A stretch of 64,000 nucleotides of DNA. Origin: Alphaproteobacteria bacterium. Lineage in GTDB: Bacteria > Pseudomonadota > Alphaproteobacteria > UBA7887. The stretch's first letter is position 1, and each line of letters opens with the position of its first letter. The translations under genes were made by a program, and so were the position numbers. This document shows positions 3,400 to 31,166 of this stretch, in pieces. The notes under the pieces were generated by a model. The model was given only the letters and a program-made list of their open reading frames with translations, was not told the origin of the DNA and searched no databases. Location of the stretch: NCBI GenBank assembly GCA_965216755.1, contig CBDCGL010000011.1, forward strand, positions 4,320,001-4,384,000. The letters run 5' to 3'.

Positions 3400-3805
3400 T
3401 TATGTTTCTTTCTCGGTTTCTTTGCCCGTGCCATGCCGTCTACTGGACAGGACATGGGTTTGTTTTGAATCACCACGCGAATATATCCAATTTTACGAAA
3501 TTTTGAAATAGATCGGCTTTCGCAGAACCGTAGTTTGTGGTTCACGACTGGTGCAGGTGTAGAGCCCTTTCGGATGCCACGCAGCCGTTGCCGTCGAGCA
3601 ATCGCGTTTATCCGTGTTTCAAGGCCCGCTGTCGTGAATACTGCGACATCACCGGGCCAACAAGTATCTGCCCAAACATTAATTGTTCATCGAAAGAGCT
3701 GAACATCATTATTTGAGTACGAAAACAACAGTGCGCTATTGTATTGCGAGTCCGAATATTCAATAATCAAATTGACGTTGGGAAAAACAAACAGACATCG
3801 GGGTC

Positions 3806-6462: not shown

Positions 6463-9400
6463 TTAGTAAGTGGGGAAATCGCGGCTCAGATCTTCTTCGA
6501 CGGCAATCAGAGCGTCGCCATTTTCATAAACCCGATACACCGAGCCTTCGCCAAACGGATTGCTCATCGTACCGACGTGGGACCACTCCCCAGGGTTGTC
6601 TTCCCACAAAGAGATCGAGTCATTCTCATTGCCGGCAACAAAGATATCGATATCCCGAAGCACGCCGTCGTCGTCTGCCATCGGTGCCAGATTGTTACTG
6701 GCACCCAGAGTGTTGACGGACGCAGCGTCGAAGGATACGCGATCATGGCTGTCGCCGTCGGTCATATCGATCAGTTCGATGCTGTGCAGCTTGGCGACTT
6801 GGTTGTCCTCAGCCTCGGGGCCCATATAGAGCTTACCGATACCATTGGCGCCAAAATCATTGCCGACATGCAACCGGTCAAAGCCGCTGCCACCGTCAGC
6901 CACCGCAAAGTCCCGAATTTCCTTGAAGTCGGCCGAAGGCGTCAAGTCTTGGAGGACCAGGATATCATCGCCTTGGCCGCCATAGAGCTTGTCGCCGGCG
7001 TCATTATCAAGGCCGCTGTAAAGGGTGTCGTTGCCCTTACCGCCATACAAAAGGTCGTTGCCCGCGCCACCATTAATGATGTCATCACCATCACCGCCAT
7101 GGGCCGTGTCGTCACCTTCGCCAGCTTGGATGTTGTCGTCATCGTCGCCGCCAAAGATGATGTCGCCTTGGTCACCGCCCAGCAATTCGTCAGCCAATGC
7201 ACTGCCCCAGATTGTATTGGGCGTGCCATTGTCGGCGGCAACCGAGATGCCGCTGCCAGCGTCCTCAATGACGCTCTTTATTTCGATGGATGCCGCGACC
7301 GGTCCGGCGACACCATCCGACACGGTATAGGAGAGGTTGCCGCTGTCGGCGACGCCATTGTTGTCTGGCAAATAGCGCAGTGAGGCGAACTCAGCGGCGT
7401 CCAGAGCCTCTCCACCGACCAAGGCCACAAAAACGCCATCCGATGCGCCGGTTGGATGGTAAAAGACATCGCCTGCACCCGGTACGTCGCCGATCGAGTA
7501 GGTCAAGGTGTCGCCTTCCAGGTCGGCGGCCGGATTGACCATGAGGGCGTAACCCGCGGCGGCGAGTACGCCAGGCAGCGCGGCCGGGTCGGCCGGATCG
7601 GTTGGGCGAATGGCCGTATTGTCTGGTACCCAAACCGTGCGTGATTCCGGCACCGGCGGCGTGTTCAAGCTGCTCGTGCCCAAGTCCGTGATGTTCAGTG
7701 TGAGCTCGGCGCTTGCCGTGCTGCCGTCGCCGTCGACGATTGTGTAGGCAAACGCTTCAGACTGGTTGCCATCGACCGGCGGCGCTGCGTAAGTGTAGCC
7801 GCCCGTTTCAAAGTTGAAACTCAAGACGCCGTCCAACGGAGTCACGATGGTGACTGTATCGCCGCTGGTCGTCGTTCCGTCCGGATTGGTAATCGTTCCG
7901 GTGACCGGATCGTATTGGAAAGTGAGCGTTTCACCGCTCGACGGGTCGGTGAAACTGAGCGAGGCCACATGGGCGTCGCCACCGGCGGGTCCATCGGCGC
8001 CAAATACGTCATTGGCGAGGACGTTGCCGTCAACCACCGAGCCTTCATTGGTCGGAATTGTTGCCAAAAGCCCTTCGGTGAGGGCGCCGTCTTCGACCAC
8101 GACGATGTCATCGGGATAGGCGACATCGTTGAGTGGCGAATCGCCAGGCACGACTTCCGGCCCGATCCGGACCGCAATTGAGCGTACGCCGTTGGTCACC
8201 ACGAAGGTCTTCCAATCCGCCGGCGTCGTGTTATTCGACGGAAACGGTTCGCCGTCAGAGACGAAATAGACAATGTTCGAAACTTCATCGCTTGACGGTG
8301 TTGCCGAAACGATGCCTTCGACAACGCCGCGGGTAACGACCAAGGCATCATCATATTCCGTGCTTAAGCCGAGGCCGTTCATACCCAGCGCCAGGCTGTC
8401 GATGAAATCGCCCGCGTCGGCGATGTTCATGGTGACGGTGTTGAAGGCGCCAGCCGTATCACCCATGAAATCAAGGTCACCACCAGATGCGAAGACCACG
8501 AACGTCACGGTCACTTCGGCCGTAATATCGCCATAACCGTCGATCAAATCGGCCAAGGCTTCCTTCATCGCCGACAGGCGGCTTTTGCCGGTGCCGGGAA
8601 TGATATCGCCCATGCTGCCGGACACATCGACAACCATGGTCAAGTTGACGAGTTTCGCGATGCCTTCATTGGCGGCATTGCTGTCGTCTTCCGCGATTGG
8701 CTGATCGTCGGTGATGTTGATCCGCAGCGTGCTGCTGGCCGTGCTGCCGTCGTCGTCGGTCACCACATAGGTGAACTGGTCTGCGACCGGACCGCCGCTG
8801 TGATCGCCATTGTCGGTCAGGTCATAGCGATATTGGCCGTCGCCGTTGATCGTCAGCGTGCCGTGCGTGCCAATGATGATGGTGTTACCGGTGTCGCTAA
8901 CAGGCACGCCGTTAACTTCGGTGACTTTGGCTGGATCGGTGCTGGTGAAATTTAGCGTGCCGCTGGTGCTTTCCGTGATCGCGGCCGGGTCGCTGCCGAT
9001 GTCGTCTCCGAGCACCACGTCATCGCTATCAAGCGCCGATTCCTCAACAATGCCGTGGGTGATTTCGGCGACCGGTTGATTGGTGTCGTGGAAATGAATC
9101 CAGATCACCGACTTGGCCGTATCACCGTCCGCGTCAACGATGTGGTAGAAAAAATCTTCCATCCCGTGCGGCGGAACCGATTCGACGGTCAGCGTGTAGG
9201 TATAGCTTCCATCGGGTTTGATGGTGACAAATCCGTACTTGCCGTCGACCCGAAGGCCGTCTTCGGGCACCGGCCGTCCAGACAACATCGTTACCACAAT
9301 GTGGTTGTCACCACCGGGATCGTCATTGTCAAAGACGTTGCCCGAGACGCTGTTGCCAAGACCTTCGTCCAGACCAATCACTTCCGCTTTGGCGCGCGGC

Positions 9401-11445
9401 GCATCGTCCTCAACAGCAACGGTGAACGTGCTGCTGTGGGAATCGCCGTCTGAATCCGTGATGGTGTAGGTGAAATTCAGGTCCAACACGTCATCATCGC
9501 CGGTGCGGACGACATCCGGGTGGTCCAGCGGTCCAAGCAGTTCAAATACATAGCTGGCGCCAGTGGGCGTCGGCGTAATTGTTATGACAAAGATTGTATT
9601 GCCACCGGCCGATCCGGTGATGATCGTGTTGCCGCTGCCGTCGGTGCCTTGGCTATAAGTGAGCGGAACGCCATTCGAGGTGAGCGTGGCGGGATCCGAC
9701 GGAATTGCTTGCACATTCGGATCGCCGTCGGTCACCGAGGTGAATTCGACAACGAGGGCGCCATCGGCGGCCGGGCCATCCATGCCGTAGGAGAAAAGCA
9801 ATGTGCCTGTCGCGCTATCCGGCACGAACTCTTGATCATTGCCCTTGCCGACAGAGTCCTCGGTTACGACCACCTTGCTGCCGTCGCCACCAGGCTGACC
9901 ACCTTCGTCGATCGTCGGCACACCATCGCGCACACAAACATGGAACGACGCCGAGGTCGAATCCATGTCGAAATCGGTGATCGTGACGCCGAACTCGAGA
10001 CCGACCACATCATCGTCGCCGCTTTCGCCGGCGCCCATGTGATCGATGCCGCGGATCAGATCGAAATCAAAATCGCCAGTCGTCGTGTCGATCTCCAAAC
10101 GCCAGACCGTGTTGCCGCTATCCGGGCCAAGGGACGGTTCAAAGCGTCCGGTGACGCCGACAACGATCAGCGTATCGCCGTCGAGAAAATAGTAATGGCT
10201 GATCGGTTCGCCATCGGATGTACCGGCAATCGTGCTGCCGTCGCCGCTGTCGTCGGTGTAGCGAATGCCGTCAATCGAGAACCAGTCGAGCTGGCCATCG
10301 GGCACGATGCGCATGCCGCCAGAACCCGGCACGATCGCCAAGTTATCGACAGACTCGGCGGTTCGATTCGGGCCATCGGAGCCGTGGTAGACGACGATGC
10401 GACCCGTGGCGCTGGCGCTATCGATCGTGCCACCGACATCGTCCGTGGCAATTGGCGGTGCCTCGTTCAGGCACACCATCGAGTTGTCGCCAACGAACAA
10501 GGCCGGGCCATCGTCGGAAACCGAAATGGTCACTGTGGCGGATCCGGTCGCGCCCGTCGAATCGGTGATATCCAAGACAAACACCAGATCTTGTAGATCG
10601 TCCGGATCGCTCGGGTCGCCGTGATCGAGGCCGTCGAGTAAATCAAACGTGACGTCGCCCGTCGGTGAAATCGACAATTCGAACACGGGCCGGCCACCGG
10701 CGCTGCCTTCGATCACCAACGTGCCGCTGTCGTCCCGTGTCGTGATGTCGATTGGATCGCCGCCCGAGGTGACGATGGTCGGGAATCCGGCAAAGCCGAT
10801 GCTGGTAATGGGGTTGCCTGTTGAGCTGATCAGCGCCCCCGACGTGCTCCCCAGCACGCTCGGTGTTGGGAAAGGATCGGTAAAGGGGTCGAAGCCGGCT
10901 CCAAGGTCGATCGATTCATCCGTGCCCAGGCCGAGCGTTGCGCGCGGGCCGTCCAGCGCCTCAACACCAATGCCGCCGTCCAGACCAAGATTTTCTTGGG
11001 CAACGCGGCCCTCGGGCTCCTGGAAGCCATCCTGGGGAATTTCACCGATGACACCGCGCGCGCGCAGATGGTCGGGGAACAGGTCGCCAATCGTCACTGT
11101 GCCGTCATTGCCGAGGCCGTCGTCTTCGTCGACATCGCCTGGCGGTTGTTCACCCGCCGCGGTCGCGATCAGATCGTCGAGCGTCGCAATTTGGGAATCC
11201 GCAAAGACCAGCCCGACATCGTCGGCATTTTCGAGCTGCGCATAGAAACCAGAGATCGTGACATCGAAATTGTCAACAGTGACGACGGTGTCGAAGTCGC
11301 CCTGATTCGTGATGGTGATACCGTCGGTGCCGATATCATCAAAGACTGCGCGTTCGCCCGGTCTTAACTGGATCCGGTCGACTGGTGGAACATCAAATGC
11401 CCGAACTTCGACGCCGGCAGCGTCAACGATACGAATCGTTGCCAT
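6463..11445 (-). CDS. Large type I-secreted RTX adhesin (T1SS-143/Ig-like repeats, vWA domain, RTX nonapeptides)
   Basis: Repeated 'L..PLDH...ITDxDGD' and 'F.Y...D.DG..A' modules; vWA VVDVSGSM...FVSDGEP; GGDGDDIINGGAGNDLLYGGKGND repeats; no Sec signal; TAAG near the N-terminus. Confidence 0.85.
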   Translation of the reverse strand: MATIRIVDAAGVEVRAFDVPPVDRIQLRPGERAVFDDIGTDGITITNQGDFDTVVTVDNFDVTISGFYAQLENADDVGLVFADSQIATLDDLIATAAGEQPPGDVDEDDGLGNDGTVTIGDLFPDHLRARGVIGEIPQDGFQEPEGRVAQENLGLDGGIGVEALDGPRATLGLGTDESIDLGAGFDPFTDPFPTPSVLGSTSGALISSTGNPITSIGFAGFPTIVTSGGDPIDITTRDDSGTLVIEGSAGGRPVFELSISPTGDVTFDLLDGLDHGDPSDPDDLQDLVFVLDITDSTGATGSATVTISVSDDGPALFVGDNSMVCLNEAPPIATDDVGGTIDSASATGRIVVYHGSDGPNRTAESVDNLAIVPGSGGMRIVPDGQLDWFSIDGIRYTDDSGDGSTIAGTSDGEPISHYYFLDGDTLIVVGVTGRFEPSLGPDSGNTVWRLEIDTTTGDFDFDLIRGIDHMGAGESGDDDVVGLEFGVTITDFDMDSTSASFHVCVRDGVPTIDEGGQPGGDGSKVVVTEDSVGKGNDQEFVPDSATGTLLFSYGMDGPAADGALVVEFTSVTDGDPNVQAIPSDPATLTSNGVPLTYSQGTDGSGNTIITGSAGGNTIFVITITPTPTGASYVFELLGPLDHPDVVRTGDDDVLDLNFTYTITDSDGDSHSSTFTVAVEDDAPRAKAEVIGLDEGLGNSVSGNVFDNDDPGGDNHIVVTMLSGRPVPEDGLRVDGKYGFVTIKPDGSYTYTLTVESVPPHGMEDFFYHIVDADGDTAKSVIWIHFHDTNQPVAEITHGIVEESALDSDDVVLGDDIGSDPAAITESTSGTLNFTSTDPAKVTEVNGVPVSDTGNTIIIGTHGTLTINGDGQYRYDLTDNGDHSGGPVADQFTYVVTDDDGSTASSTLRINITDDQPIAEDDSNAANEGIAKLVNLTMVVDVSGSMGDIIPGTGKSRLSAMKEALADLIDGYGDITAEVTVTFVVFASGGDLDFMGDTAGAFNTVTMNIADAGDFIDSLALGMNGLGLSTEYDDALVVTRGVVEGIVSATPSSDEVSNIVYFVSDGEPFPSNNTTPADWKTFVVTNGVRSIAVRIGPEVVPGDSPLNDVAYPDDIVVVEDGALTEGLLATIPTNEGSVVDGNVLANDVFGADGPAGGDAHVASLSFTDPSSGETLTFQYDPVTGTITNPDGTTTSGDTVTIVTPLDGVLSFNFETGGYTYAAPPVDGNQSEAFAYTIVDGDGSTASAELTLNITDLGTSSLNTPPVPESRTVWVPDNTAIRPTDPADPAALPGVLAAAGYALMVNPAADLEGDTLTYSIGDVPGAGDVFYHPTGASDGVFVALVGGEALDAAEFASLRYLPDNNGVADSGNLSYTVSDGVAGPVAASIEIKSVIEDAGSGISVAADNGTPNTIWGSALADELLGGDQGDIIFGGDDDDNIQAGEGDDTAHGGDGDDIINGGAGNDLLYGGKGNDTLYSGLDNDAGDKLYGGQGDDILVLQDLTPSADFKEIRDFAVADGGSGFDRLHVGNDFGANGIGKLYMGPEAEDNQVAKLHSIELIDMTDGDSHDRVSFDAASVNTLGASNNLAPMADDDGVLRDIDIFVAGNENDSISLWEDNPGEWSHVGTMSNPFGEGSVYRVYENGDALIAVEEDLSRDFPTY

Positions 11446-12333: not shown

Positions 12334-13791
12334 ATGACCCGCAAAGTTGAAGCCTGGGCTGACATATTGTTGTACAAGCCCGGCTTGGCCGACAAACGGG
12401 CCGTTGCCGAAATTGAAAAATCGCGTGACGTGCAATGGCTCAAAGAGCGCGGCGCGTCGGTGACGGTGTGCACAAATGCGGCTGCTATGCGTCAGCGACT
12501 GTCCACCCACGCGCCGACCTTGGTGCTGTTGGATTTCGCGGCCGGCGAAGAGTCCATCGATTCAGTTGAAATCGAGAGTCTGCACCACATTCGTCCGAGC
12601 TTGCGCTTTGTTGCGCTCGTCAACGGGGATCTCGTTGGGTCGCCAATATTTGCCGACTTGGTGCGCAAGCGCCTTCTCTACGACTATCAAACATTGCCCT
12701 TAGATCGCGACCGCCTGCTGTTCGTCGTCGGTCACGTGCGCGGTTTGGTGGAAGTTGAGCGCCAGCATCGAGCGGCGCGGCCAATTGGCACCGAGAACGC
12801 GGAATCCGAGCCCTTCATGGTCGGATCGCATCCGGCAATGTTGCGTGTCTTCTCAACGATTCGGAAAGTGGCGCGAACCGACACGCCTGTTTTGGTCACT
12901 GGTGAGAGTGGCACCGGCAAAGAACTGGTTGCCAACGCAGTGCATGAACGTTCGCCGTTTCGCGAGGGCCCATTTGTTGCCATCAATTGCGCGGCCATCC
13001 CGTCGACGCTGATTGCGTCGGAGCTGTTTGGTCACGAAAAGGGTGCCTTCACAGACGCGCGCGAGCGCAAGTTGGGCAAGATTGAATCGGCTTCGAACGG
13101 CACTTTGTTCCTGGACGAAATCGGCGATTTGCCGCTTGAGCTTCAAGGGCATCTGCTTCGTTTCTTGCAAGAGAAAACCATCGAACGGGTTGGTGGCACG
13201 CGCACGATTCAAGTGACGACTCGGGTCATCGCGGCGACCAACGTAGACTTGTGGGAAGCGGTCGAAGCCGGAAAATTCCGTAAGGATTTGTTTTATAGGC
13301 TGAATGTCTTGCCGATTCACTTGCCGCCGTTGCGAGAGCGCGGCAATGATATCGAGCTTGTCGCGCGTTATTTTCTACAGCGGTTTAGTTCCGAGCTTGA
13401 GCGGCCCGACCTGGAGTTTAAGTCGAGCGCGATCGCGGCAATCCGAAATTATGGCTGGCCGGGCAATGTGCGTGAGCTGATCAGCGTCATCCGCCGGGCG
13501 GTGGTCATGGCGGAATCACGTTGCATCGACGCATCGGATCTGGATCTTCCCGTTTCGGTCGATGACGGTGGTCGGTTGCCGACCATCGAAGAGGCACGGT
13601 ATCAGGCGGAACAAGAGGCGATCCAAAGGGCGCTGCACAAACATAACGACAATATCAATCGTGCAGCAAAGGAGCTTTGTGTCTCGCGCGTGACGCTGTA
13701 TCGACTGATCGAGAAACATGCCATCGTCTACACGCCGCGCGGTCGCAAGCGCGTCGCGGATTGGACGCCGGACATTGAATATATTAACTAA
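12334..13791 (+). CDS. Sigma54-dependent enhancer-binding protein, VpsR-like
   Basis: GESGTGKE, ELFGHEKGAFTDA, LFLDEIG, FRKDLFYRL, WPGNVREL, Fis-type HTH; atypical receiver-like N-terminus (LYDYQTLP). Confidence 0.9.
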   Translation: MTRKVEAWADILLYKPGLADKRAVAEIEKSRDVQWLKERGASVTVCTNAAAMRQRLSTHAPTLVLLDFAAGEESIDSVEIESLHHIRPSLRFVALVNGDLVGSPIFADLVRKRLLYDYQTLPLDRDRLLFVVGHVRGLVEVERQHRAARPIGTENAESEPFMVGSHPAMLRVFSTIRKVARTDTPVLVTGESGTGKELVANAVHERSPFREGPFVAINCAAIPSTLIASELFGHEKGAFTDARERKLGKIESASNGTLFLDEIGDLPLELQGHLLRFLQEKTIERVGGTRTIQVTTRVIAATNVDLWEAVEAGKFRKDLFYRLNVLPIHLPPLRERGNDIELVARYFLQRFSSELERPDLEFKSSAIAAIRNYGWPGNVRELISVIRRAVVMAESRCIDASDLDLPVSVDDGGRLPTIEEARYQAEQEAIQRALHKHNDNINRAAKELCVSRVTLYRLIEKHAIVYTPRGRKRVADWTPDIEYIN

Positions 13792-13873
13792 ATTTGCAGA
13801 CAGGGCGGGGTATAACACATAAACTGCGGCACATCGCGGCGTAAGGGACGCGCCGCCAAAAATAGGTGGGAAG

Positions 13874-15142
13874 ATGGGACGAAGGACTGCGGGAACGGTA
13901 GCCGTCTTTGCGGGTATCGTTGGGGTGACGTTACCACTGGGTGCTTTTGAATCCGCCTGGGGGGCAGAGGCGCCGGATACCGCGCTCCAAGCCGAGATTG
14001 AGATTCTTCGGGGCGAGATTCAGCGCCAGCAGAATTCCTTGGATGCCCAACAAGAACAACTTCGGCGTCTCGAGCAGCGTTTGTTTGAGCGGATCGGGGG
14101 TGCCGGCGGTCAGATCGTCGACCCTGGCTTGTTGGAAGATGTTCGTGGTGCCGGCACTGGCGCCGGAGGTGGGCAAGCCAATGGCGGCGTGTCGGATCCG
14201 GTCGGTGAGGCGGCACCCGAGACACGGCCTGAAGTGAGCGTATTGTCCGATGTCGGCGGTGTTTTGACCCCGCGCGGTCGGTTGGTGGTCGATCCTTCTT
14301 TTGAGTTCAGTCACACGGCGGTCAACAAGTTCTTCTTCAGCGGTGTCCAGATCGTCGATGCGGTGTTGATTGGCGCGATTGAGGCGACCGATGCCCGTCG
14401 CGATAGTTTCACGCCGTCGATCGGAGCACGCTACGGCGTCACCAATCGTATTGAGGTGGATGCGCGCGTTCCTTATTCGATTCGCGATGACGTGGAGAGT
14501 GATCCGTTGGATGCGTCATCGCCGCTGTCGCGCGAGCTAAGTGCGAACGATCTGGGCGATGTCGAATTCGGCGCGCACTATCAGATCAATGACGGAACCG
14601 CCGGGTGGCCCTATTTCATCGGCAATTTGCGTTTCAAGACAACAACGGGAACCGGACCGTTCGACGTCGCGTTCGACTCTCAAGGTCGTCAGCGGGAACT
14701 TCCGACTGGATCTGGCTTTTACACGCTCGAACCCAGTGTCACGGTGCTCTATCCGACCGATCCGGTGGTCCTGTTCGGGAATATCGGTTATGCAGTCAAC
14801 TTGCCGGACGACGTCGACAAGACAATTGGGTCACAGTTTTTCGGCAAGGTCGACCCGGGCGACAATTTGCGCACCAGCTTTGGCATCGGTTTCGGCATCA
14901 ACCAACAGGTATCGATGAGTCTGGGGTATGAACACAGTTATGTGTTCGAGACCGACTCGGAGATTGATGGCGTTACGGTGAAGTCTGATCCAGCGCAAGT
15001 GGGATCTTTCCTGTTTGGTTTGTCGTTGGCGGTGACCGACAGGATCTCGACCAACTTGAACGTGGCTGTTGGGGCGACGGAAGACGCACCAGATGTCCGC
15101 ATTGGTATCAGTACGCCGATATCGATCGATCTTTTCAACTAA
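13874..15142 (+). CDS. FapF-like outer-membrane amyloid secretion channel
   Basis: Signal peptide, N-terminal coiled coil, GVLTPRGRLVVDPSFEF, LPTGSGFY, PTDPVVLFG, beta-barrel C-terminus; adjacent to a C39 peptidase operon. Confidence 0.8.
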   Translation: MGRRTAGTVAVFAGIVGVTLPLGAFESAWGAEAPDTALQAEIEILRGEIQRQQNSLDAQQEQLRRLEQRLFERIGGAGGQIVDPGLLEDVRGAGTGAGGGQANGGVSDPVGEAAPETRPEVSVLSDVGGVLTPRGRLVVDPSFEFSHTAVNKFFFSGVQIVDAVLIGAIEATDARRDSFTPSIGARYGVTNRIEVDARVPYSIRDDVESDPLDASSPLSRELSANDLGDVEFGAHYQINDGTAGWPYFIGNLRFKTTTGTGPFDVAFDSQGRQRELPTGSGFYTLEPSVTVLYPTDPVVLFGNIGYAVNLPDDVDKTIGSQFFGKVDPGDNLRTSFGIGFGINQQVSMSLGYEHSYVFETDSEIDGVTVKSDPAQVGSFLFGLSLAVTDRISTNLNVAVGATEDAPDVRIGISTPISIDLFN

Positions 15143-15348
15143 ACACCAGGGTCGATGGTAGGCCGCTTTTGGCCGGCGTGAAAAGCTGAGTAGTTTCAGG
15201 TAATCGGGTAGAACGAGCACTTGTCCGGGACAGCGGTCAGGTGCTCGGTCTTTTCAGCCTCAGTAAGAACGCCCGCGGACGGATGGCGGTGGTCTGTTCG
15301 ACAGGTAGAGAAATTCCGCACGGTTCCGTGACACGACGCCAGATGACT

Positions 15349-15705
15349 TAGAGCACTTTCCGACCATATTGAGTCAATTCTGTTTCCGGTCCGGCGCGGC
15401 GGTCCACGCGAAGGGCGGCGCAGCGCGATGCTCGTGTCCCGAAACCGAAGTTCGTCACGTCTGACCCCAGGCACCTTACGAACTGCGGTTTCGTCAGGAC
15501 ACGAGTCGAATATTTGGATCTCGCGCGGTTCACGGATCGGACGTTCGCTCTGGGGCTCGATGCGAGATCAAGCGAACGTCCGATCCACCGCACGAGCGCA
15601 TCGGGCAAGTCCGCCGACCAATGTGGTCGTCCACATGGATTCCCATCGGGGGACGCCCGCCGGTCGGAAACAGAATTGATTCGATATGGTCGGAAAGTGA
15701 TCTAG
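15349..15705. mobile_element. MITE-like element with ~48-bp terminal inverted repeats and nested hairpins
   Basis: TAGAGCACTTTCCGACCATATTGAGTCAATTCTGTTTCCG at 15349 matches the reverse complement of 15658-15705; inner hairpins at 15431-15505 and 15534-15586. Confidence 0.7.
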
Positions 15706-15812
15706 CGGCCGCGTTTGCAACGTGCACGAACCGATCTTTTGAAAGTACGTTGGATCGAATCCAACCGCGCCGGTTGGCCCTTTGACTTCGGGACAGTTGT
15801 GCGTGGGGGCGC

Positions 15813-15848
15813 AAAAAAAGGGCCGGTGGATCCAGGGTACCACCGGCC
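15813..15848 (-). terminator. Intrinsic terminator of the minus-strand fap-like operon
   Basis: GGCCGGTGG/CCACCGGCC stem followed by T7 on the minus strand. Confidence 0.7.
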
Positions 15849-15989
15849 AAAAACTTGGTTCTTAAGACATCGACGCCGTATGGCTCCACCAAATGGGCGG
15901 CCGATGTTGAGGTCGACGGCTACGTTAGGTCCCCCCGGTCCTAGGCGTTAACGAACGCGTGATCCGCCGACCACTCTCGTGTCGCGGCC

Positions 15990-16628
15990 TTAGAATTGCC
16001 CGACATTGATTTGATTTGTGATCTTCCGGGCCTTGATGGCCGGCAAAGCGTTCATGATGTAGCTGGTTAGGCTACGAACATGAATATTCACTTCGGTTGA
16101 AGATTCAAAAATCTGCCGATCGGCCGTGTTGTTGATCATGGCCAATACTTGGCCATTATTGTTCACCTGATGAACAATCTGTGTTGAAGACGGATCGCCG
16201 AGTGCCACACTGTAGCCACCGCCGTTCGACTGCTGTACAGCCGCCGCAGCGGTTGTTGCCGTTTGCTCGCCGCCGGTATCCACGTCGGCCAATCCGGCAT
16301 TCGACGGATTGACTTGCGTGGTCGCCGGCAGCCATTGCCCGGCGTCATTCATCGTCAGTTGGGTCACCAGTTCCATGGCGCCGTTAACCGTCGATCGAAC
16401 CGTCAACCCGAAGTCGAACACGACGCCACCGATCACCATGCCGCCACGCATTTGGTCAAGGTCATCGTTGTCGACCGGTGCAAACGCCGAGAAGACATCG
16501 GCAGAATGCGCGCGCGCATCCACCTTGTCGCTGCCCAAGGACACGATTGCCCCAAACGCCGCTGCCCCGATAATCAAGCCACCCAGCGCCAATGTCGTTT
16601 TGTTGTTGTTCTTTAGTATCGACTGCAT
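15990..16628 (-). CDS. FapE-like secreted accessory protein
   Basis: Signal peptide, PVDNDDLDQMRGG motif, 'FGLTVRSTVNG', Asn/Gln-rich; downstream of the C39 peptidase. Confidence 0.7.
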   Translation of the reverse strand: MQSILKNNNKTTLALGGLIIGAAAFGAIVSLGSDKVDARAHSADVFSAFAPVDNDDLDQMRGGMVIGGVVFDFGLTVRSTVNGAMELVTQLTMNDAGQWLPATTQVNPSNAGLADVDTGGEQTATTAAAAVQQSNGGGYSVALGDPSSTQIVHQVNNNGQVLAMINNTADRQIFESSTEVNIHVRSLTSYIMNALPAIKARKITNQINVGQF

Positions 16629-16643
16629 TACGTCCCAATCCCT

Positions 16644-17345
16644 CTAGAATTCAGCAAGACCCGGCAAGTTCATCGTGAACGATGCCAAGCCTTGTCGAAC
16701 CATCGCCGTCTGCACAGGGGCTCGCACCCTGACATTCCAATCGTCATCCTGGTTGAATGTCGCGTTCGCGACTTCGACATTGTCCCGGATCACGAAAACG
16801 ATCCCATTCCAGATCTGTTCAAATTCATCCCGCCGTACGACCATGACGCCACGGGCCGGATCCCCAAGTACGACCTCATCGCCGCGAATACCTTTGACGA
16901 CGACAAAATGCTTGTAGCCGTTGGTATCGATCAATGTGATCGCCGGCACCCCCACTTCCGCGAGTTGGTCTAGCGAAATCTTGAAACCGTCGCCGGTCCA
17001 GCCAACCGATTCCAAGAACCGCTTCATATCCAGCAACGAAAACCCGTAGCGGTGAATGGATTCCTTGTCGCCGACTATGTACATGGCCTCGAAAAGTTCG
17101 GCTTCGGTGATCTCTTGTTTGTAGTGATACGTCAGCAAACTCGCCAATGCGGCCGAGCCACACGAGAAGTCATACTGCTGCGCAAGGATGGTCTTAAAAC
17201 GCCCTTCTTTAAGACTGATAATGGGGACGCTGTAGCGCATGCCATGAAACCCTGGCGTCGAAATAAAAACTTCGCCCGCCATGGTCGGGGTGAACGCCGC
17301 AACGCTGGTCAAAATAACACTGACCAAAAAAGAACGTATGCGCAT
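16644..17345 (-). CDS. FapD-like stand-alone C39 peptidase
   Basis: QQYDFSCGSAALA (catalytic Cys), GFSLLDMK, YKHFVV, LGDPARG; signal peptide; no ABC domains. Confidence 0.9.
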   Translation of the reverse strand: MRIRSFLVSVILTSVAAFTPTMAGEVFISTPGFHGMRYSVPIISLKEGRFKTILAQQYDFSCGSAALASLLTYHYKQEITEAELFEAMYIVGDKESIHRYGFSLLDMKRFLESVGWTGDGFKISLDQLAEVGVPAITLIDTNGYKHFVVVKGIRGDEVVLGDPARGVMVVRRDEFEQIWNGIVFVIRDNVEVANATFNQDDDWNVRVRAPVQTAMVRQGLASFTMNLPGLAEF

Positions 17346-17406
17346 TTGCTCTCCCTTTGATTCCCGTGAAGCCGCTTTGGTTTGAACAGGTCTGAACTTG
17401 CCTGCG

Positions 17407-17805
17407 TTACTTCACGTCCAATCCATCGAGATAAACGTTCACGATGGTCGAATAGTTGAAGTTGTTCATATCGCCCGTGTTGTTGACGACCGTCGTGATG
17501 CCGTGGGTATCAGTGACCACGTTGTTACGGATTTGCCCGGAGGTCTTCGTGGAGCCGTTATCCAGGCTAATTGTGTTGTCTTTGATCGTCGCGTCCGAAT
17601 CCACCTGCGACGTTGTGAGGACGCTGTTAGCCACGCCGATAGCGACACTGCTGAGGGCAGCGCTATCCACGGGCTGCAAACTATTCAGTCCTTCCGATTG
17701 GGCGGTCGCCGTTGTGCTCATCGCTGCGACGACACCAACGGCGATCACGCCTGCCAAAACTCGGCTCTTGCCGGCCGCCTTACGTTTCTTATGGAGCATT
17801 TTCAT
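17407..17805 (-). CDS. Minor Fap-like secreted subunit (FapB-like)
   Basis: Signal peptide; C-terminal repeat GITTVVNNTGDMNNFNYSTIVNV. Confidence 0.65.
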   Translation of the reverse strand: MKMLHKKRKAAGKSRVLAGVIAVGVVAAMSTTATAQSEGLNSLQPVDSAALSSVAIGVANSVLTTSQVDSDATIKDNTISLDNGSTKTSGQIRNNVVTDTHGITTVVNNTGDMNNFNYSTIVNVYLDGLDVK

Positions 17806-17840
17806 TTTTTGCGTTCCCTGGGATGTTTTCTGCTCAGATC

Positions 17841-17875
17841 GTTCCGGCGGCAGGGAGAATTTCCTGCCCCGGAAC
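17841..17875 (-). promoter_or_regulatory. Intercistronic stem-loop after the major subunit gene
   Basis: GTTCCGG-C-GGCAGGGA GAAT TTCCTGCC-CCGGAAC. Confidence 0.55.
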
Positions 17876-17886
17876 AGTGATGCCTC

Positions 17887-19080
17887 TTAGTTCCTGATCG
17901 ATCCGCCACCATTGACGCTGCCAACAATGGCGTTGACGCTCATCGCGACGTTTTGGTTTTGGGCGAAACCGGTGTTTTGCATAATCGGATTTACGCCGGA
18001 CAGTCCGGTGATCCCCTCCAACAGACTTCCTGTCTTGAACTTGAATGCCAGGCTGGTTGTTTGACGGCCACCGCCAATAGCTGCCGCGGTCGTGTTCTCG
18101 GCATCCGCCGCGATTCCATTTGCAGCGGTCGCGGCATTCGACACTGGTCCGGATTCGGCCTTGGCTGTGGCGTCTCCAGACTTTGCGTTGCTACCGGCGC
18201 CGGCCGTTGCGGACGTTTCGCCGACCGCGCCGCCGCCGCCTGTGGCGCCGCCGCCTTCGCCGGATGTCCCGGCCGCGTCGCCATCCTTGTCGCCCAAGCT
18301 GGTCGCGTTTGTTGCCTTGCCGCCGCCGATGGCGATGCCATCCGCGAAGTTTGCGGCGCGTCCGCCAGCGGCCCGGCTGTTGCCGCCTTGATTGCGCGCA
18401 TCGCCGCCCTCATTGCCGCCAGCCAATGCGGCTGCCCTCGCTGCCGAATCCGAGCCCGAGAAATTCGCATTTCCGCTGGTTGAATCACCGTCCGCGCTGG
18501 CCGCAGCGACGCCGATTCCGATCGCTGCCACTTCGCCCGCCGCAATCGCGGCGCCCGCTCCACCAGTGGCGGCACCATTGGCTTCAAGATTGAACATCTG
18601 AACTTTCGCGATCGCCGAACGGAGCTGCGAATGGCTCAACTGGGCCACATTGTTGTAGATGCTGCGGTCGTAGGCGACGGCGTTGCCCGAATTCCACATT
18701 ACGTGCCACAGTGCGCTGTTGTTGCTGTCGACGGTGGTCGTGTTGCTATAGGTCAGCTTCTCGGCATCGACATCCAAAGCGTCGATGTCCACTTTGCCGT
18801 TTTTGTTGTCGATGACGTCGTTGTCAGCTGTCGCGCCACCGCTGGCGTTGCCCGCGCCCAAATTGTTGTCAGCGGCCGCCAGATCGACATCCAACACGTC
18901 ATTGTCTGCAATACTGCTGTTGTTCGCGTTCCCCGCTGCCACGCCCGCGATGCCCACATTCGCTTGGCTTTCTGCCACACCAAGGCCGCCACCTGCGCCA
19001 CCCCCGGCGTACGCCGTGCCGGCCAAGGCCATGCCAACGGCGACTACCGATGCTGTAGCCAAATGGGAGTTCATCTTCAT
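17887..19080 (-). CDS. Major Gly/Ala/Asn-rich secreted subunit (FapC-like putative amyloid)
   Basis: GGAGGAG RBS, signal peptide ending AYA, low-complexity core, C-terminal GLSGVNPIMQNTGFAQNQNVAMSVNA repeat. Confidence 0.7.
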   Translation of the reverse strand: MKMNSHLATASVVAVGMALAGTAYAGGGAGGGLGVAESQANVGIAGVAAGNANNSSIADNDVLDVDLAAADNNLGAGNASGGATADNDVIDNKNGKVDIDALDVDAEKLTYSNTTTVDSNNSALWHVMWNSGNAVAYDRSIYNNVAQLSHSQLRSAIAKVQMFNLEANGAATGGAGAAIAAGEVAAIGIGVAAASADGDSTSGNANFSGSDSAARAAALAGGNEGGDARNQGGNSRAAGGRAANFADGIAIGGGKATNATSLGDKDGDAAGTSGEGGGATGGGGAVGETSATAGAGSNAKSGDATAKAESGPVSNAATAANGIAADAENTTAAAIGGGRQTTSLAFKFKTGSLLEGITGLSGVNPIMQNTGFAQNQNVAMSVNAIVGSVNGGGSIRN

Positions 19081-19248
19081 CGACATCTCCTCCAGCGTCC
19101 CCTTAACGATCCATTCCCGACAATCCGGCGTGCGACGCAATGTCCAACCCGCGGTTGAATTGCCGTCGCATCCCTTCGTTGGCCCACGTCGCAATTCACG
19201 TCGTGTGGCTCACCGGGTTGCCGGCGAGCCGCCGTCCGAGGGCTATAT

Positions 19249-19265
19249 AAGCAACTCTCATGCCA
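19249..19265 (-). promoter_or_regulatory. Sigma54 (-24/-12) promoter
   Basis: Minus strand TGGCATGAGAGTTGCTT = GG-N10-GC, about 170 bp upstream of the major subunit start. Confidence 0.8.
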
Positions 19266-19532
19266 TCGCCTTGTTTGTCATAAGCAATTGAAAAATAATA
19301 TGAAAATGTCGTGGTTGGGGGGTGCGCAGCGCGGGGGCTTATCAGGTGTCCCAATCTTGTTACAGTCGATCGGGGGCCATTTTCGATGGCTGCTATTGGT
19401 GGCTTAAGCAGGTGTGACGCCGCGGACCGAAATGGTCTGTCAAATATTTGAAATTGTTCGTAAAATTGATGTCGATTTGTGCGAAGTTGCGCGCACCTTG
19501 GCGTGGGTGCAGTTCCGCCGTGACGTGTCAAA

Positions 19533-19550
19533 TGTTTCGTTTCTGAAACA
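19533..19550. promoter_or_regulatory. Palindrome, candidate enhancer site
   Basis: TGTTTCGTTTCTGAAACA about 270 bp upstream of the sigma54 promoter. Confidence 0.45.
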
Positions 19551-19920
19551 TAGGCCGGACTGCAAGGCGCCCGAACGGGTAGGCTTTGCCCGATCCGGCG
19601 CATGTGCGGCGACCGTAAAGCGGTGCCGGTATGGTCCAATTGGGTGGTTGGAGATGAGGATGTATCAGGCACGAAACCCTTGGCCCATATGCACCACTTG
19701 GGTCACAAATGACGCGCGCGCATCCTCAGCCGGCGGGCGATCTCATTGCCGCCGCCCGTGACATGGCCTCATGGACGGGCGCCCCACGGCCGATTCCGGC
19801 GTGGCTGTCCTTGGCCGTGTTGACGAAGGCGCGCCGAACGTCACCAGGTCGTGGTGAAAATACACACCCAGAATGTTTCAACATGGCCCCAGATTGGCCG
19901 AAAGGTGCGCACCACCGCTG

Positions 19921-20016
19921 TTCGTTCAAACGGGGTCGTTTGAACGACGTTGAATCGATCGATGTCAGTTAGATAGAGCGTATCATGCGAACGTATGTCA
20001 ACCTGATCGGCTCCAG
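19921..20016 (-). repeat. Dispersed ~95-bp repeat, copy A
   Basis: Reverse complement aligns with 47274-47369; contains a CGTTCAAACG/CGTTTGAACG hairpin. Confidence 0.75.
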
Positions 20017-20023
20017 ATCCGCA

Positions 20024-20359
20024 CTACATGTTAAATACGATCTTGACGCCGTGTTCGGTGTGGCTGATCGACGGCGGCTGTCGTCCATTCGGCGTTCGCG
20101 GATGGCGAAACTCATCCCACAAAATTACCGCTGTGTCGGTCTCCATCCGACCGCTGTCCGCGGGCCCAGAGGCGTGACCGGTCCCGACCGTGGCGCGCAG
20201 CCGAGCTTCGTCGAGAGGCATTTGGCAGCCATCGCCAAATAGGTTTGGCCTGGACACGCAGCCATCGATTGCGCGCGCCGGGGCAACGACAAGTAGCGTC
20301 GCGGCACAGCCTATGACCAGTGTGCCGACGCAGCATCTGAATTGTGAATGAACTTTCAA
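20024..20359 (-). CDS. Small secreted protein with VILWDE motif, probably part of the fap-like locus
   Basis: Signal peptide ending ARA, LDEARLRATVGTG, VILWDE; same strand as the fap-like operon. Confidence 0.55.
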   Translation of the reverse strand: MKVHSQFRCCVGTLVIGCAATLLVVAPARAIDGCVSRPNLFGDGCQMPLDEARLRATVGTGHASGPADSGRMETDTAVILWDEFRHPRTPNGRQPPSISHTEHGVKIVFNM

Positions 20360-21188: not shown

Positions 21189-21839
21189 ATGTGTCAAGTG
21201 AGATTTCATCAAGCGATCGCGATGATTGCAGCCGTAATTGCGCTGTCGTCGCCATTGCTGGCGCCGCCCGCGCATGGCGCCTGGTATCAAGAGACTTTCG
21301 ACGGCGCGCCGAACGATGTCATGATGGGCATTCTGCATTTCGGCGCAGGTGAAGTTTGGCAGGGTGATTTGCGTGGTGGCACCTACTATCTCGGGAATCA
21401 ATCCGATGAACAGGCCGTCAACCTGTATTTCATCGGTGCGCTGCCAAATGAACCGGCCGGTTTATTGGGCGAGGCTGTGGTTTCCGTCGACGTCGGGGGT
21501 ACGTATCAAGGGCAGCGGGCCGGGTCGGGGCTGATTTATCGCTTCAGCGACGATCCGCTCAACTACTACGCGTTTTTGCTCATGCAAGGCAACAGTTACG
21601 GCCTTTTCCAAAGGGACGCGAGCGGCTTTACTTTGATAGCCAGCGCGCAAGATTCCGCAATCGCTGTTGACCGGATGAATCGCCTGACGGCGGCGACATA
21701 TTCAGATGGGATTTGGTTTTATATCAACGGCAAACATGTGCAGACGGTTCCGGCGCCCGGATTTGGCGGCAGTTCGGTCGGCATCATCGCCAAGGGCCTT
21801 GGCGAGCATTTCTTCGATAATTTTACGGTCGAACGTTAG
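21189..21839 (+). CDS. Secreted beta-sandwich (ConA/DUF1080-like) protein
   Basis: GGAGGA RBS, signal peptide, GLIYR...YYAFL...NRL...FYING...G.VG...FDNF pattern. Confidence 0.6.
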   Translation: MCQVRFHQAIAMIAAVIALSSPLLAPPAHGAWYQETFDGAPNDVMMGILHFGAGEVWQGDLRGGTYYLGNQSDEQAVNLYFIGALPNEPAGLLGEAVVSVDVGGTYQGQRAGSGLIYRFSDDPLNYYAFLLMQGNSYGLFQRDASGFTLIASAQDSAIAVDRMNRLTAATYSDGIWFYINGKHVQTVPAPGFGGSSVGIIAKGLGEHFFDNFTVER

Positions 21840-24800
21840 TCGTCACCACCAGGCAGCCTTGGCCGCGCGCCTTAAGCGTGGCGCACAACTGGGCAGCCTC
21901 ATCAAAGTCGGTGAATAGACCCGTGCGCAATCGATAGATCGTGGTGCCATCGTCGCGCGCGACGTCTTCGAAGATGGGCGCGCGACCGATCAGCACATCG
22001 CCATGGGCGGAGAGGATCGAATCCCACGATTCCGCCGCTGATTCCGCGCTACTAAGTGCTGCCAACTGGATCAAATACGCCGTTTCGGCGGACGCCACGT
22101 TCGAGCGCGGCTCGGTATTATTGATTTGCACTGCGCCATTCTCGCGATTTGGCCGCACATCGCGCGGTGCGGTCGGTGATGCAGGTACGTCCCGATCGAC
22201 AAAACGCTGACCTGTGGCGGCCGCTTGCGTGGTTTGATGGGCCGCCGCGCGTGCCGCATGAGCCGTTCCATTTACTACGCCGGAGGTGTGGTTGCGCGCC
22301 CCATTGCGCATCGGGCCTGCCTGTTCGTTGCCAAGGCGCGGCTGTTGGCTTGCTTGCCTCGTGTCGTCGGTCGCGCCCACATTGCGTGCCAGAAAACGGG
22401 ATGACCGTGGCGGCTGCGGTTCTTCGAGTGACGGTACCGGCGCGGTCCCTTGGTGGGTTGTGCCGCGCAGGGGTACGGGTGTGTCAATGGCACGCGCGTC
22501 GCGGTCTGCATTGGCACGTGGCGGCAGTGGTTCTTGTGGAAGAATGGGCTCGGGGTCGGCGATGGCCACCACGGTTCGCGACGGCCAAGTCATGTATCTC
22601 GGCTCCGTCGTCGCGGTTTGTTCACCCGGTTCGGCGGAGAGCAACGCCGTCGACTGTTCCATGCCTTCCAAGTCCGTGACAGTCGTCTGGCCGACCTGAA
22701 TCGAACGGGTCGCCGCACGAGCCAGTCTCGTTGCGCCATTGGTGTGCCGCGCAGGAATGGCCGGCGGCATCAGCTCGCCGGCTGCGGCCAATGCAACCGG
22801 CGGCATCACATCAATGGTCGTGCCCGTGCCCACGGTCGTCGCGCTATCGGCCCATTCCGGTTGGTATAGAGGTGGCCAAGACAACGCGTATCGCGCGGCC
22901 GACAGTTCAGCTGGCTCCAGCGGTTCGGCAAGGTGACGATCGACCCCCGCAATCGCTGGTGGTGATGTGGCCGCGGCCATCGCCACATTGACCTGACGTG
23001 GCGCCGGCTGCGGGCGCATTGTGGCCAAGGCGGCCTGATCGTCTGAGCGATTTCGATGCTGTGGGCGCCGCCCGACCGGCGGTTCTGAAAGCACGAACCC
23101 GACCATGGCCGGCACGGCGCTGTTAAGTTGACTGGGTTCCAATCGCTCGGGCGGCGTTGGCAACGCGACAAGGGTCGGTTGGATCGGATGGAAAAGCGAC
23201 GCGGGTTGGTCCGGCACCGCAACCCGACCCAACGGCTCTTGTGGCGCGGGACCTTGCAAGAGTGGGTCGGGCGACGTGTATCGTGGTTCGGTTGGACTGG
23301 GGGTCGGCGCTCGGTGCTGTTGGGGTGCCCGCAGCAGCGCACCAATGTCGAGCATCGCGGCGACCGAACGCTTGGGGCTTGGCGGCGTTGACGGCTCTTG
23401 AAGGCCAATGGGCGTGATCGCCAAGCCAACGCGCAAAGGCGGTGGCGTTGCGTCACCAAATGCGACGGCGACAACATTGCCCAGGCGCTGATGTGGGGCC
23501 GGTTCATCCATACTCTCGCGCGTGGCGTGGATAACCGGGGTCGGAACCGTGCTTTCGCTCGTGGTTACACCCACGCCGTTTGTGGCGGCGGCGTAGTCGA
23601 GCGTTTCATCGGGTGCCAAGGCGGCAAGTGAGCTCTGCGCGCTGCCGGTACTTGCTGCGTCATCCGGCGGCGATGGTTCATGCTCGATGTTGCTGTCACC
23701 GCCCAGATTCGCTGCAACACGAATGGTGCCTTGGATGCGTGCCAAACGTGTGCGCAAGTCCACCGCGTCTGAGCCCCTGCCAAGGGCAACATAGGCCTGT
23801 GACAGGCTGTTCAGAGTTCCGACCAGACGCGGATCATCCGGTCCGAAAAGCCGCTCGCGAATAACCAAGTCGCGAATCAATAGGGGCACCGCCTCGGCTG
23901 CCCGATCCTGCGCCAAATAGCACGCCCCCAGGTTGCTCAAAGCGCGGCTGAGGGCCGGATGATTCCACGGCAACTGGCTTTCAAAAATCGCCAGAGCCCG
24001 TTCCAGCAACGGTTCCGCTTCGGCCGCCTGGTCATGGGCATTATGGACGGCGCCCAGGTTGGCCAGACTGTGGGCCACGTCGACATGGCCGGGACCTAGA
24101 ATGCGTTCACGCGTGGCGAGCGCCGCCCCCAAAAGAGGTTCTGCGGCGTCGGCGTCCCGTGTTTCCAGATACACCGCGCCCAGATTGTTGCGACTTTGTG
24201 CGACATCCAGATGTTGATCTCCGAGCGTTTCAAGCCGAATTTCCAAAGCTTGCGCGAACAGCTGCGCAGCTTTGCGCAATTCACCTTGGGCCTGATATGC
24301 CACGGCAATATTGTTGAGGCTTGTGGCCAGCGACGGATCTTTGTCATCGAGCAGCCGACGTTTTATTTCCAGGGATTGCTGGAAAAAGTCGATGGCTGTT
24401 TGATGGTTTGCTTGCGCATCGTGCAGGCTGCCCAGATTGTTCAGGATTCGCGCGATCGCGAGTTCGTTGTCGCCATTGGATTCGCGCAAAACGGCCAGCG
24501 CGCGTTCGTAGAGAGATTCGGATTCGGCAAAGCGTCCTTGCGCCTTGTAGATGTCTGCCAAGCTATTCAAGACGCCGGCCGCGGCCGGATCGGGTAGCTC
24601 TGTGCCGCGTTGGTACATGGCCAACGCGCGGTCATAGAGCGGTTCGGCCTCTGCATATCGCTTTTGGCGCCGGTAAAGATCCGCCAGCGCAAACAAGCTG
24701 TTCGCAATGGCGCGATCGTCGGGGTCCAAAATCCGGACATTGATGCCCAGTGCCTCGGTCAAGAGCGGATCGGCGTTCTTATAGTCGCCAAGCGCCTTGT

Positions 24801-26746: not shown

Positions 26747-26923
26747 GGCGATTGAGATCCGGGGTGCCGCCGCAGCGATCACAAAACCAGCGAGCCTGCG
26801 GTCCAGCGCCTAGTCCGTGTGGATCATGCCGTTCCATACAAAATAGATAAAATTTTACTCAATTCGATGGAACGACCTCAGCAGTTGTCAGATAAGGCGG
26901 CGCGAGGTCAGGGAGAGCAAGAT

Positions 26924-30733: not shown

Positions 30734-31166
30734 TTTGCGAAGTCCCTTCCGAAAAACCCAACAGCAATCGAGAAGTAATTTGGCGGAAGGTGCGTAATTA
30801 TTCAATAAAGTTTTATGTAATGGTGGTCACACAATTGAGGGAAAGTGGAGTGTTATTTTATTAAAGTTGTATATAAATATGTAATAGTGATCACATATTG
30901 CGATCCCAACTTATTGACTACATTGATTGGCGGTATTTTTATTTACCAACCACACCCACTCCCTTCCCCCAATACACGCTCACCCAGCCAGACCACACTC
31001 TCTCGACGCAGGCGCGCCAACCGACCCGAATGGCCCGGCACGCGACGCTCAAAGAACTGTGGCCGGGCGTTGGCCCGGCCACGGATAGGTGACGGTATCT
31101 AGGGAAGGGGACTATTGGGCGCGAGTTGCGCGCGCCCAGTCCGGGGACGTTCGGCCGATTGGGGTG

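Follow-up and report, generated by a model that had tools for sequence, protein, structure and literature searches.

Organization of the locus

For the purposeful building of amyloid fibres in Gram-negative bacteria there are two model systems, Fap and curli. The locus described here, which encodes a secretion system related to Fap, lies in a 64,000-nt stretch of an alphaproteobacterial genome (assembly GCA_965216755.1, contig CBDCGL010000011.1, forward-strand positions 4,320,001 to 4,384,000), and this whole stretch is referred to below as the window. On the plus strand the gene for a sigma54-type activator is followed by that for a FapF-like channel, and both face minus-strand genes that are transcribed in the order 111-aa protein, 397-aa subunit, 132-aa subunit, 233-aa C39 peptidase and 212-aa FapE-like protein (Table 1). 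This order (A, major subunit, minor subunit, D and E, with F apart) mirrors fapA-F. The six presumed exported proteins all carry Sec-type signal peptides at their N-termini, so all are predicted to reach the periplasm. A first-pass annotation, made from the DNA alone, had proposed a Fap-type secretion core at this locus. The open reading frame (ORF) list and pattern searches return its seven genes, −24/−12 promoter and terminator at the same positions, and FapF-, FapD-, FapE- and FapA-like proteins are present together with the activator gene and the promoter.

Table 1. Genes and signals of the Fap-related locus (positions in the window)
Feature	Position	Strand	Basis
Sigma54-type activator gene, 485 aa	12334-13791	+	ORF list
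FapF-like channel gene, 422 aa	13874-15142	+	ORF list
Intrinsic terminator, 3' of subunit operon	15813-15848	-	9-bp G+C stem, 10-nt loop, T7
FapE-like gene, 212 aa	15990-16628	-	ORF list
C39 peptidase gene, FapD-like, 233 aa	16644-17345	-	ORF list
Minor subunit gene, 132 aa	17407-17805	-	ORF list
Major subunit gene, 397 aa	17887-19080	-	Start is the ATG after GGAGGAG
-24/-12 promoter, TGGCAT-N5-TTGCT	19250-19265	-	Pattern match
FapA-like gene, 111 aa	20024-20359	-	ORF list

The channel and the peptidase

The 422-aa channel aligned almost end to end with the NCBIfam FapF model (E 1.4e-46; residues 30-415 of the protein against positions 14-417 of the 420 in the model) and matched the solved FapF structure, PDB 5o67, over the barrel (E 1.8e-31, residues 131-415 on 30-331 of 334), consistent with its initial designation as FapF-like. 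Its score against the FapF model, 159 bits, compares with an equivalog cut-off of 700 bits; judged by these profiles, the protein is a homologue of FapF and not an equivalog. A signal peptide is followed by a coiled-coil at residues ∼37-73 (coiled-coil families match weakly at 36-73), a Gly-rich linker and the barrel at 131-415, which contains the sequence LPTGSG at residue 276. The closest relatives, at 48-50% identity, are encoded by metagenome-assembled genomes (MAGs) of Rhodospirillales.

The 233-aa protein matched Peptidase_C39 of Pfam (E 1.3e-22) and the NCBIfam FapD model (E 1.3e-43), in the latter case with 148.9 bits, which does not reach the cut-off of 330. It has a signal peptide, its Cys62, His146 and Asp162 lie within the usual motifs, and no ABC transporter (ATP-binding cassette) is fused to it. 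These sequence features identify the product as a stand-alone, FapD-like C39 cysteine peptidase of the periplasm, and the presence of a C39 peptidase in the operon is thus upheld by both models.

The Fil system, a putative pilus system, likewise combines a stand-alone C39 peptidase with a FapF-related protein, and the proteins of the window match FilB with 120.5 bits and FilC with 79.4 bits. These scores are, however, below those against FapD and FapF and far under the FilB and FilC cut-offs of 475 and 630, respectively, and thus do not place the two proteins in the Fil system. None of the NCBIfam models of Fil subunits matched the cargo of the window.

FapE-like and FapA-like proteins

The 212-aa gene adjoins the C39 gene on the side towards the channel gene, which is the place of fapE between fapD and fapF. 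The profile of its family aligned with that of four canonical FapE proteins at a probability of 79% in hhalign (E 1.5e-5), and BLASTP of the protein against the FapE of Aidingimonas returned an E value of 6e-4. Both matches rest on an N-terminal motif, the stretch common to the two families being F...(I/V)..EL..LRGGF.I.G..F.FG; the NCBIfam FapE model did not match the protein. These data suggest that the 212-aa protein is a remote FapE-like protein, and the FapE-like gene proposed for the operon holds as a likeness of that degree. In an AlphaFold2 (AF2) model (predicted local distance difference test, pLDDT, 70.5; predicted template modelling score, pTM, 0.53) a β-domain spanning residues 64-185 precedes a long C-terminal helix. 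A fold search with this model against the PDB found nothing at E ≤0.001, the top entries being LolA-like with template modelling (TM) scores of ∼0.2.

Residues 57-63 of the FapE-like protein, LDQMRGG, form a double-glycine-type site in which R61, G62 and G63 are invariant or nearly so across 34 relatives. The pattern L..[LMIVA]RG[GRKQ] resembles the double-glycine leader cut by C39 peptidases. It occurs in all canonical FapE (4/4) and FapA (5/5) proteins, in 31 of 48 FapE-like relatives and in 14 of 35 small subunits; it is found in none of nine canonical FapB and FapC proteins and in 78 of 3,871 background ORFs. According to Rouse 2017 (PMC5557850), GG or GA is the cleavage site quoted for C39 peptidases, and FapE is the sole Fap protein to be found without its first ∼70 residues and is named there as the likeliest substrate of FapD.

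The first-pass annotation had regarded the small secreted gene ahead of the operon as a further component. The gene is present, but it is not an extra, as its 111-aa product appears to be the FapA counterpart. An iterated search from the protein pulled in canonical FapA from each of the five canonical fap operons present among the related loci described below, the common motif being (A/G)V(I/V)LWDE (AVILWDE in the window). In hhalign the 111-aa family aligned with the five canonical FapA proteins over 36-40 columns on and around (A/G)VILWDE, at a probability of 87% when a 10-row set was used and of 79.5% with a strict set of four rows, while the controls against FapB, FapC and FapE all remained below 1%. 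Besides FapA proteins, the iteration picked up three members of the subunit family by drift, and a single-sequence hidden Markov model (HMM) of the 111-aa protein found nothing in the related loci, for which a phmmer-seeded profile was used instead. The relationship to FapA proposed here is a remote one. A perfect 11-nt inverted repeat (TCGTTCAAACG / CGTTTGAACGA, 19922-19947), which has no T-run, lies ∼80 nt past the stop of the 111-aa gene; it may serve as a terminator stem or bind a protein.

The cargo subunits and their C-terminal module

The two subunits differ in size and share one element. The 397-aa major subunit (21% Ala, 17% Gly and 10% Asn) comprises a signal peptide, an Ala/Gly/Asn-rich body and a single C-terminal module, and the 132-aa minor subunit comprises a signal peptide and the same single module. 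One HMM matched both proteins, at residues 325-387 (5e-11) and 64-127 (9e-17), respectively, which bears out the proposal that each ends in a single unit common to the two. The module, of ∼60 aa, is present in 64 of the related loci. Large proteins that end in it are encoded at the same gene position in related loci; they measure 284-901 aa, and most have a composition rich in Gly, Ala, Asn, Ser and Thr. The module HMM was needed to detect these proteins; phmmer with the 397-aa sequence found no match in the related loci, probably because of composition filters.

The major subunit of the window has few relatives. Three close ones (52-55% identity, full length) and one weak one were found among 1.84 billion representatives. 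A short tandem duplication, GNA.....ADNDV(L/I)D, was seen by eye at residues 50-67 and 77-94 and is kept in the three close relatives; a BLAST self-comparison of the protein returned the identity match only. With the exception of a single stray name, the 106 database relatives of the small subunit and the 14 of the FapE-like protein all lack a name or are called 'hypothetical'. In a language-model atlas the 30 nearest clusters of both subunits are all unnamed, and the nearest named cluster to the 397-aa protein is PF27129 FapBC, whose score of 0.76 is a lead only. Neither subunit was matched in Pfam, NCBIfam or the PDB, and 35 members of the small-subunit family were likewise without a match in these three; in the PDB the best E value of the family profile was a meaningless 9.4. 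The Pfam copy searched lacks the FapBC family and also misses canonical FapB, FapC and FapE, so its silence has no bearing on membership of Fap. The library that does inform is NCBIfam, whose FapB, FapC and FapE models recognize the divergent proteins of Aidingimonas.

Comparison of the module with the Fap repeat was made at the profile level. The published repeat pattern, X15-G-X4-N-X3-G-X6-N-X7 (Dueholm 2013, PMC3792158), recovered 27 of 27 expected repeats from nine canonical FapB and FapC proteins, three in each. The profile of these 27 repeats aligned with that of the module at a probability of 58% in hhalign (E 1e-4) over 33 of 39 columns, with the conserved Gly in register, whereas 20 column-shuffled controls did not exceed 5.5%. 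A full-length alignment of the small-subunit family with FapB, at 47%, fell off the repeat and was not used as evidence. The top match of the Fap-repeat HMM outside FapB and FapC was canonical FapE (E ∼0.01; 3735-4571 in related locus L033 and 3924-4760 in L035), in keeping with the remark of Rouse 2017 (PMC5557850) that the C-terminus of FapE resembles the repeats in being rich in N and Q.

When residues 37-132 of the minor subunit were modelled as four copies, the median score was 0.42 (0.42, 0.28 and 0.67 in the individual runs), the best of three controls being 0.00. Contact agreement among the runs was at least 93% and partner pLDDT at least 57. The top contacts pair residue i with i of the neighbouring copy (109:109, 107:107 and 74:74) and extend across residues 55-128. 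In the model this pattern is the geometry of a parallel in-register stack. When the multimer tool was calibrated, its mark was reached by 20 of 30 proteins whose solved structures pair two copies of one chain and by 1 of 23 proteins solved as single chains, counts that are only rough for the four-copy model, in which a custom alignment and four copies were used.

Related loci and relationship to canonical Fap

A profile of channel relatives, searched against one genome per species, matched 406 stretches. A relative is encoded in 364 of them, and the 80 best were retained. According to their record titles these 80 loci comprise 39 alphaproteobacterial and 36 gammaproteobacterial sequences (mostly Halomonadaceae), one from Burkholderiaceae, two of delta-type and two unclassified. 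A convergent layout, with the channel gene facing the E and D genes as in the window, was found in 54 of the loci, whereas 12 are co-directional (D-E-F) and four divergent; no C39 gene was found in nine, several of them on short contigs, and one lacks a strong channel match. The synteny survey suggested at the outset thus shows that the split gene order is real and is not peculiar to this genome, but is usual throughout a family that spans at least 80 species.

When the proteins of the window were compared with all ORFs of the 80 loci, matches were obtained in 72 loci for the C39 protein, 60 for the 212-aa protein, 53 for the activator, four for the 132-aa protein and two for the 111-aa protein; there was none for the 397-aa protein. 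Iteration of the search with the 132-aa protein, which merged the small-subunit and 212-aa families, placed a small-subunit gene directly ahead of the C39 gene in 67 of 70 loci. Upstream sequence suffices for this comparison in 73 loci, and in 42 of them an activator gene directly precedes that for the channel. A dedicated activator is accordingly present, as first described, and it too is a family norm rather than a peculiarity of this locus; such a gene also lies beside canonical fap operons of Halomonadaceae.

Five Halomonadaceae loci are informative with respect to the relationship between the two systems, as canonical fap genes adjoin the window-type system in each. The full fapA-F is present in three of these (L033, L035 and L051), whereas the sequence of L052 breaks off inside fapF and that of L080 covers only fapA, fapB and a portion of fapC. 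The proteins of L033 were matched by the NCBIfam FapB, FapC, FapD, FapE and FapF models, and the canonical channel and peptidase of Aidingimonas score 364 and 284 bits, compared with 159 and 149 for those of the window. That both types occur side by side in five loci indicates that the two are old paralogues. The same conclusion follows from a quick maximum-likelihood tree of 77 C39 proteins, from which partial matches (≤180 aa, or E 1e-10 or worse) were excluded. A long branch (Shimodaira-Hasegawa-like approximate likelihood ratio test, SH-aLRT, 96) sets the four canonical FapD rows apart, and 72 rows of the window's type lie on the opposite side of it (support 89), arguing for an old Fap paralogue and not a drifted copy. 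The C39 protein of the window falls within a 14-row set of 12 alphaproteobacterial proteins, one unclassified protein and itself (support 92), which, together with the Rhodospirillales relatives of the channel, makes the alphaproteobacterial origin supposed for the DNA likely. A third, much more distant pair of FapF-like and C39 proteins is encoded in a Defluviicoccus MAG (L021, 14473-16449), on a branch of length 6.1 in the C39 tree.

The equivalog scores, the repeat pattern and the tree concur that the locus is distinct from canonical Fap, as initially proposed. Homology of the machinery to that of Fap is well supported by the sequence comparisons, and a Fap-like nature of the cargo is weakly supported. 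The two systems are alike in their Sec-exported parts, FapF-type gated barrel, periplasmic C39 peptidase, FapE- and FapA-like accessories, and large and small Asn/Gly-rich subunits that are encoded ahead of the peptidase gene. They differ from each other in that the channel and peptidase of the window score far under the equivalog cut-offs, its subunits have one C-terminal module in place of three repeats and fail the repeat pattern, its large-subunit gene precedes the small one, and its channel gene is on the opposite strand beside the activator gene. The Pseudomonas fap operon, according to Rouse 2018 (PMC6173800), encodes no regulator.

The canonical fap operons of Halomonadaceae are closer to the window in one respect. 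They occur in the same genomes as window-type systems and next to them (at 912-7653 in L033, for example), have their own adjacent sigma54-type activator gene where the locus reaches far enough, and carry a strict −24/−12 match just ahead of fapA. In contrast, their FapB and FapC each contain three pattern repeats, the NCBIfam FapB, FapC and FapE models match them, and their FapD lies across the long branch from the peptidase of the window. Fap with a dedicated activator may itself be unreported.

Published surveys place Fap in Beta-, Gamma- and Deltaproteobacteria (Dueholm 2013, PMC3792158), and homologues of fapD and fapF less than 5 kb apart have been recorded in five additional phyla (Rouse 2018, PMC6173800). 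The pair in the window is of that general kind; the passage of Rouse 2018 on those pairs, however, mentions no cargo, FapE- or FapA-like partners, activator or gene order. The literature searched yielded no description of the window-type family, some loci of which the supplement of Rouse 2018 may list, and no experiment on any of its members. The family is thus a widespread, yet undescribed, sister of Fap whose cargo is filed as hypothetical.

The regulatory elements and the gene neighbourhood

The 485-aa activator contains Sigma54_activat (E 2.2e-70), AAA_lid_14 and HTH_8 domains, a Walker A motif (GESGTGK) and LFLDE. At its N-terminus a VpsR domain scores 22.5 bits, just below the cut-off of 23.7. 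The top NCBIfam match was PEP-CTERM PrsR, at 398.6 bits and thus below its cut-off of 502.6, and Pfam and NCBIfam scans matched no PEP-CTERM family to the cargo proteins; these two results do not place the locus in a PEP-CTERM/exosortase regulon. A protoglobin and GGDEF diguanylate cyclase is encoded at 3806-4924 (+) of the window, and this enzyme and the VpsR-like N-domain of the activator hint at control of the locus by cyclic di-GMP.

The −24/−12 promoter, TGGCATGAGAGTTGCT, lies 169 nt ahead of the start of the 397-aa gene within a gene-free stretch, and is the sole match in the window to TGGCAC-N5-TTGCW at up to one mismatch. The sigma54 promoter had been called canonical. It is where the first-pass annotation put it, but has T at the sixth position (TGGCAT), and no copy of the exact form TGGCAC-N5-TTGC exists in the window. 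By eye, an AT-rich stretch with the integration host factor (IHF)-like sequence TTTCAATTGCTTA was seen at 19266-19300 (-), immediately upstream of the −24 element.

Downstream of the operon the claimed terminator is substantiated by its stem (GGCCGGTGG/CCACCGGCC), T7 run and folding energy, −20.1 kcal/mol (z −2.04; 6 of 200 shuffles were equally stable). An automatic scan missed it because the loop limit of that scan is 8 nt.

Directly upstream of the activator gene, at 6463-11445 (-), is a gene whose 1660-aa product contains DUF5801, Big_9, cadherin-like and RTX repeats and, judged by these domains, looks like a large secreted adhesin. A 1127-aa TPR (tetratricopeptide repeat) protein with a C-terminal SPOR domain is encoded at 21823-25206 (-), and two T2SSE-family secretion ATPases at 26819-28462 (+) and 28898-30805 (-).

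Discussion

Taken together, these data suggest, with a probability that we put at about 0.6, that a complete system for secretion and assembly is specified by the locus, and that this system is an old paralogue of Fap and not Fap itself. In such a system the activator and sigma54 would fire the −24/−12 promoter, giving one transcript for the 397-aa major subunit, the 132-aa minor subunit, the C39 peptidase and the 212-aa FapE-like protein that would stop at the terminator. In the periplasm the peptidase may cut the FapE-like protein after (D/E)Lxx(L/M)RGG, at residue 63, and thereby license export, with the 111-aa FapA-like protein as a presumed periplasmic helper. The channel, by homology a gated trimeric barrel, would let the unfolded subunits out, and outside the cell these would polymerize through their single ∼60-aa Asn/Gly/Thr-rich C-terminal modules. 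Each subunit would contribute a single rung in register, and the fibre would be coated by the Ala/Gly/Asn-rich, variable body of the major subunit. Formation of amyloid or another fibre by the subunits is an inference from one multimer model and a weak repeat-profile match.

A more far-reaching proposal, which we advance tentatively, is that the family represents a second widespread type of Fap-like functional amyloid, built from one C-terminal in-register cross-β rung per subunit and not from a three-repeat unit, and that (D/E)Lxx(L/M)RGG, common to canonical FapE and FapA, is the site at which FapD-type C39 peptidases cleave. If this is true, the question of the FapD substrate becomes directly testable.

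Several results weigh against the Fap-related fibre system that we consider most probable and against its proposed control. With regard to the cargo, the NCBIfam FapB, FapC and FapE models matched no subunit at E ≤1, the minimal Fap repeat pattern is absent from the 397-, 132-, 212- and 111-aa proteins, and a Fap-repeat HMM found nothing at E ≤1 in the six-frame translation of the window, leaving the link between module and Fap repeat at the 58% of the profile alignment. The AF2 monomer of the 132-aa protein is poor (pLDDT 63.7, pTM 0.25) and unfit for a fold search, the multimer tool carries the warning that its models often place chains side by side regardless of binding, and the FapE-like protein is modelled as a folded β-domain and not as a fibre unit. 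With regard to processing, the RGG site occurs, among the proteins of the window, in the 212-aa protein only, the version in the 132-aa protein being degenerate. With regard to regulation, the sigma54-contact loop of the activator is GAFTDA, a form seen in nine of 62 related activators, 44 of which have GAFTGA. The promoter match is no rarer than chance (2.9 expected, and at least one in 94 of 100 shuffles), so its weight derives from its position and the nearby activator gene and not from rarity. A strict same-strand −24/−12 match 0.3-6 kb before the C39 gene is limited to 19 of 71 related loci; by our estimate from the overall match density, ∼8 would be expected.

The alternative that survives best, although we consider it unlikely, is that the machinery is Fap-like and the cargo is not amyloid, consisting of soluble or loose surface, adhesin or matrix proteins in which the module is a targeting signal for the channel or the FapE-like protein. 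The module is at the extreme C-terminus of all cargo, as is often the case for export signals, and the cargo fails every direct FapB/C test. The bodies of the major subunits are lineage-specific, as illustrated by the three close relatives of the 397-aa protein among the 1.84 billion representatives, and the RTX/cadherin-type adhesin in the neighbourhood and the poor monomer model of the small subunit would also suit this view. However, the in-register four-copy stack spans residues 55-128, which is far longer than a short signal, and the alignment of the module with the Fap repeat beats all 20 shuffled controls. In Fap itself, moreover, the repeat-bearing proteins are those that are exported and polymerized (Rouse 2017, PMC5557850).

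It is less probable still that the locus is a very divergent true Fap operon, in which the 397-aa and 132-aa proteins are FapC and FapB that have drifted past recognition in an alphaproteobacterium. All six Fap roles are filled in a Fap-like order, PF27129 FapBC is the named atlas cluster nearest to the 397-aa protein, and, as reported in Dueholm 2013 (PMC3792158), fapF is split off, and FapB and FapC have one, two or many repeats, in some genera. Drift within a single lineage is, however, hard to reconcile with the occurrence of both types side by side in five loci and with the long, supported branch that parts them in the C39 tree. Nor do the bit scores of the channel (159, cut-off 700) and the peptidase (149, cut-off 330) resemble those of the canonical Aidingimonas proteins, and the Fap repeat pattern is missing from the window. 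That the genes are unrelated neighbours, the barrel being a PF13557/COG4313-type channel for uptake of hydrophobic compounds (many of its relatives carry a precomputed PF13557 label) and the C39 enzyme processing bacteriocin-like peptides, whose double-glycine leaders such peptidases classically cleave (Rouse 2017, PMC5557850), is scarcely credible given a gene set and order kept in dozens of species, a barrel protein that matches FapF end to end including its N-terminal region, a peptidase with a Sec signal peptide and no fused ABC transporter, and Sec signal peptides on the cargo.

An old paralogue of Fap, the reading that we prefer, has implications beyond this locus. Curli offers a general parallel, as it too provides an outer-membrane route for unfolded Asn/Gln/Gly-rich subunits and has a major and a minor subunit; it uses CsgG in place of a FapF-type barrel and has no C39 peptidase, and a sequence relation is neither seen nor expected. 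A sister family with the same channel, peptidase and accessories, and a different, single-module cargo, is a natural counterpart to Fap, and bears on what the machinery recognizes, what the minimal fibre-forming unit is and which protein FapD cleaves. The dedicated sigma54 activator provides a handle on regulation that has no counterpart in the Pseudomonas operon. Alpha- and Gammaproteobacteria from marine, saline and soil settings commonly have this family and, as its cargo is all filed as hypothetical, matrix fibres in these bacteria may be overlooked.

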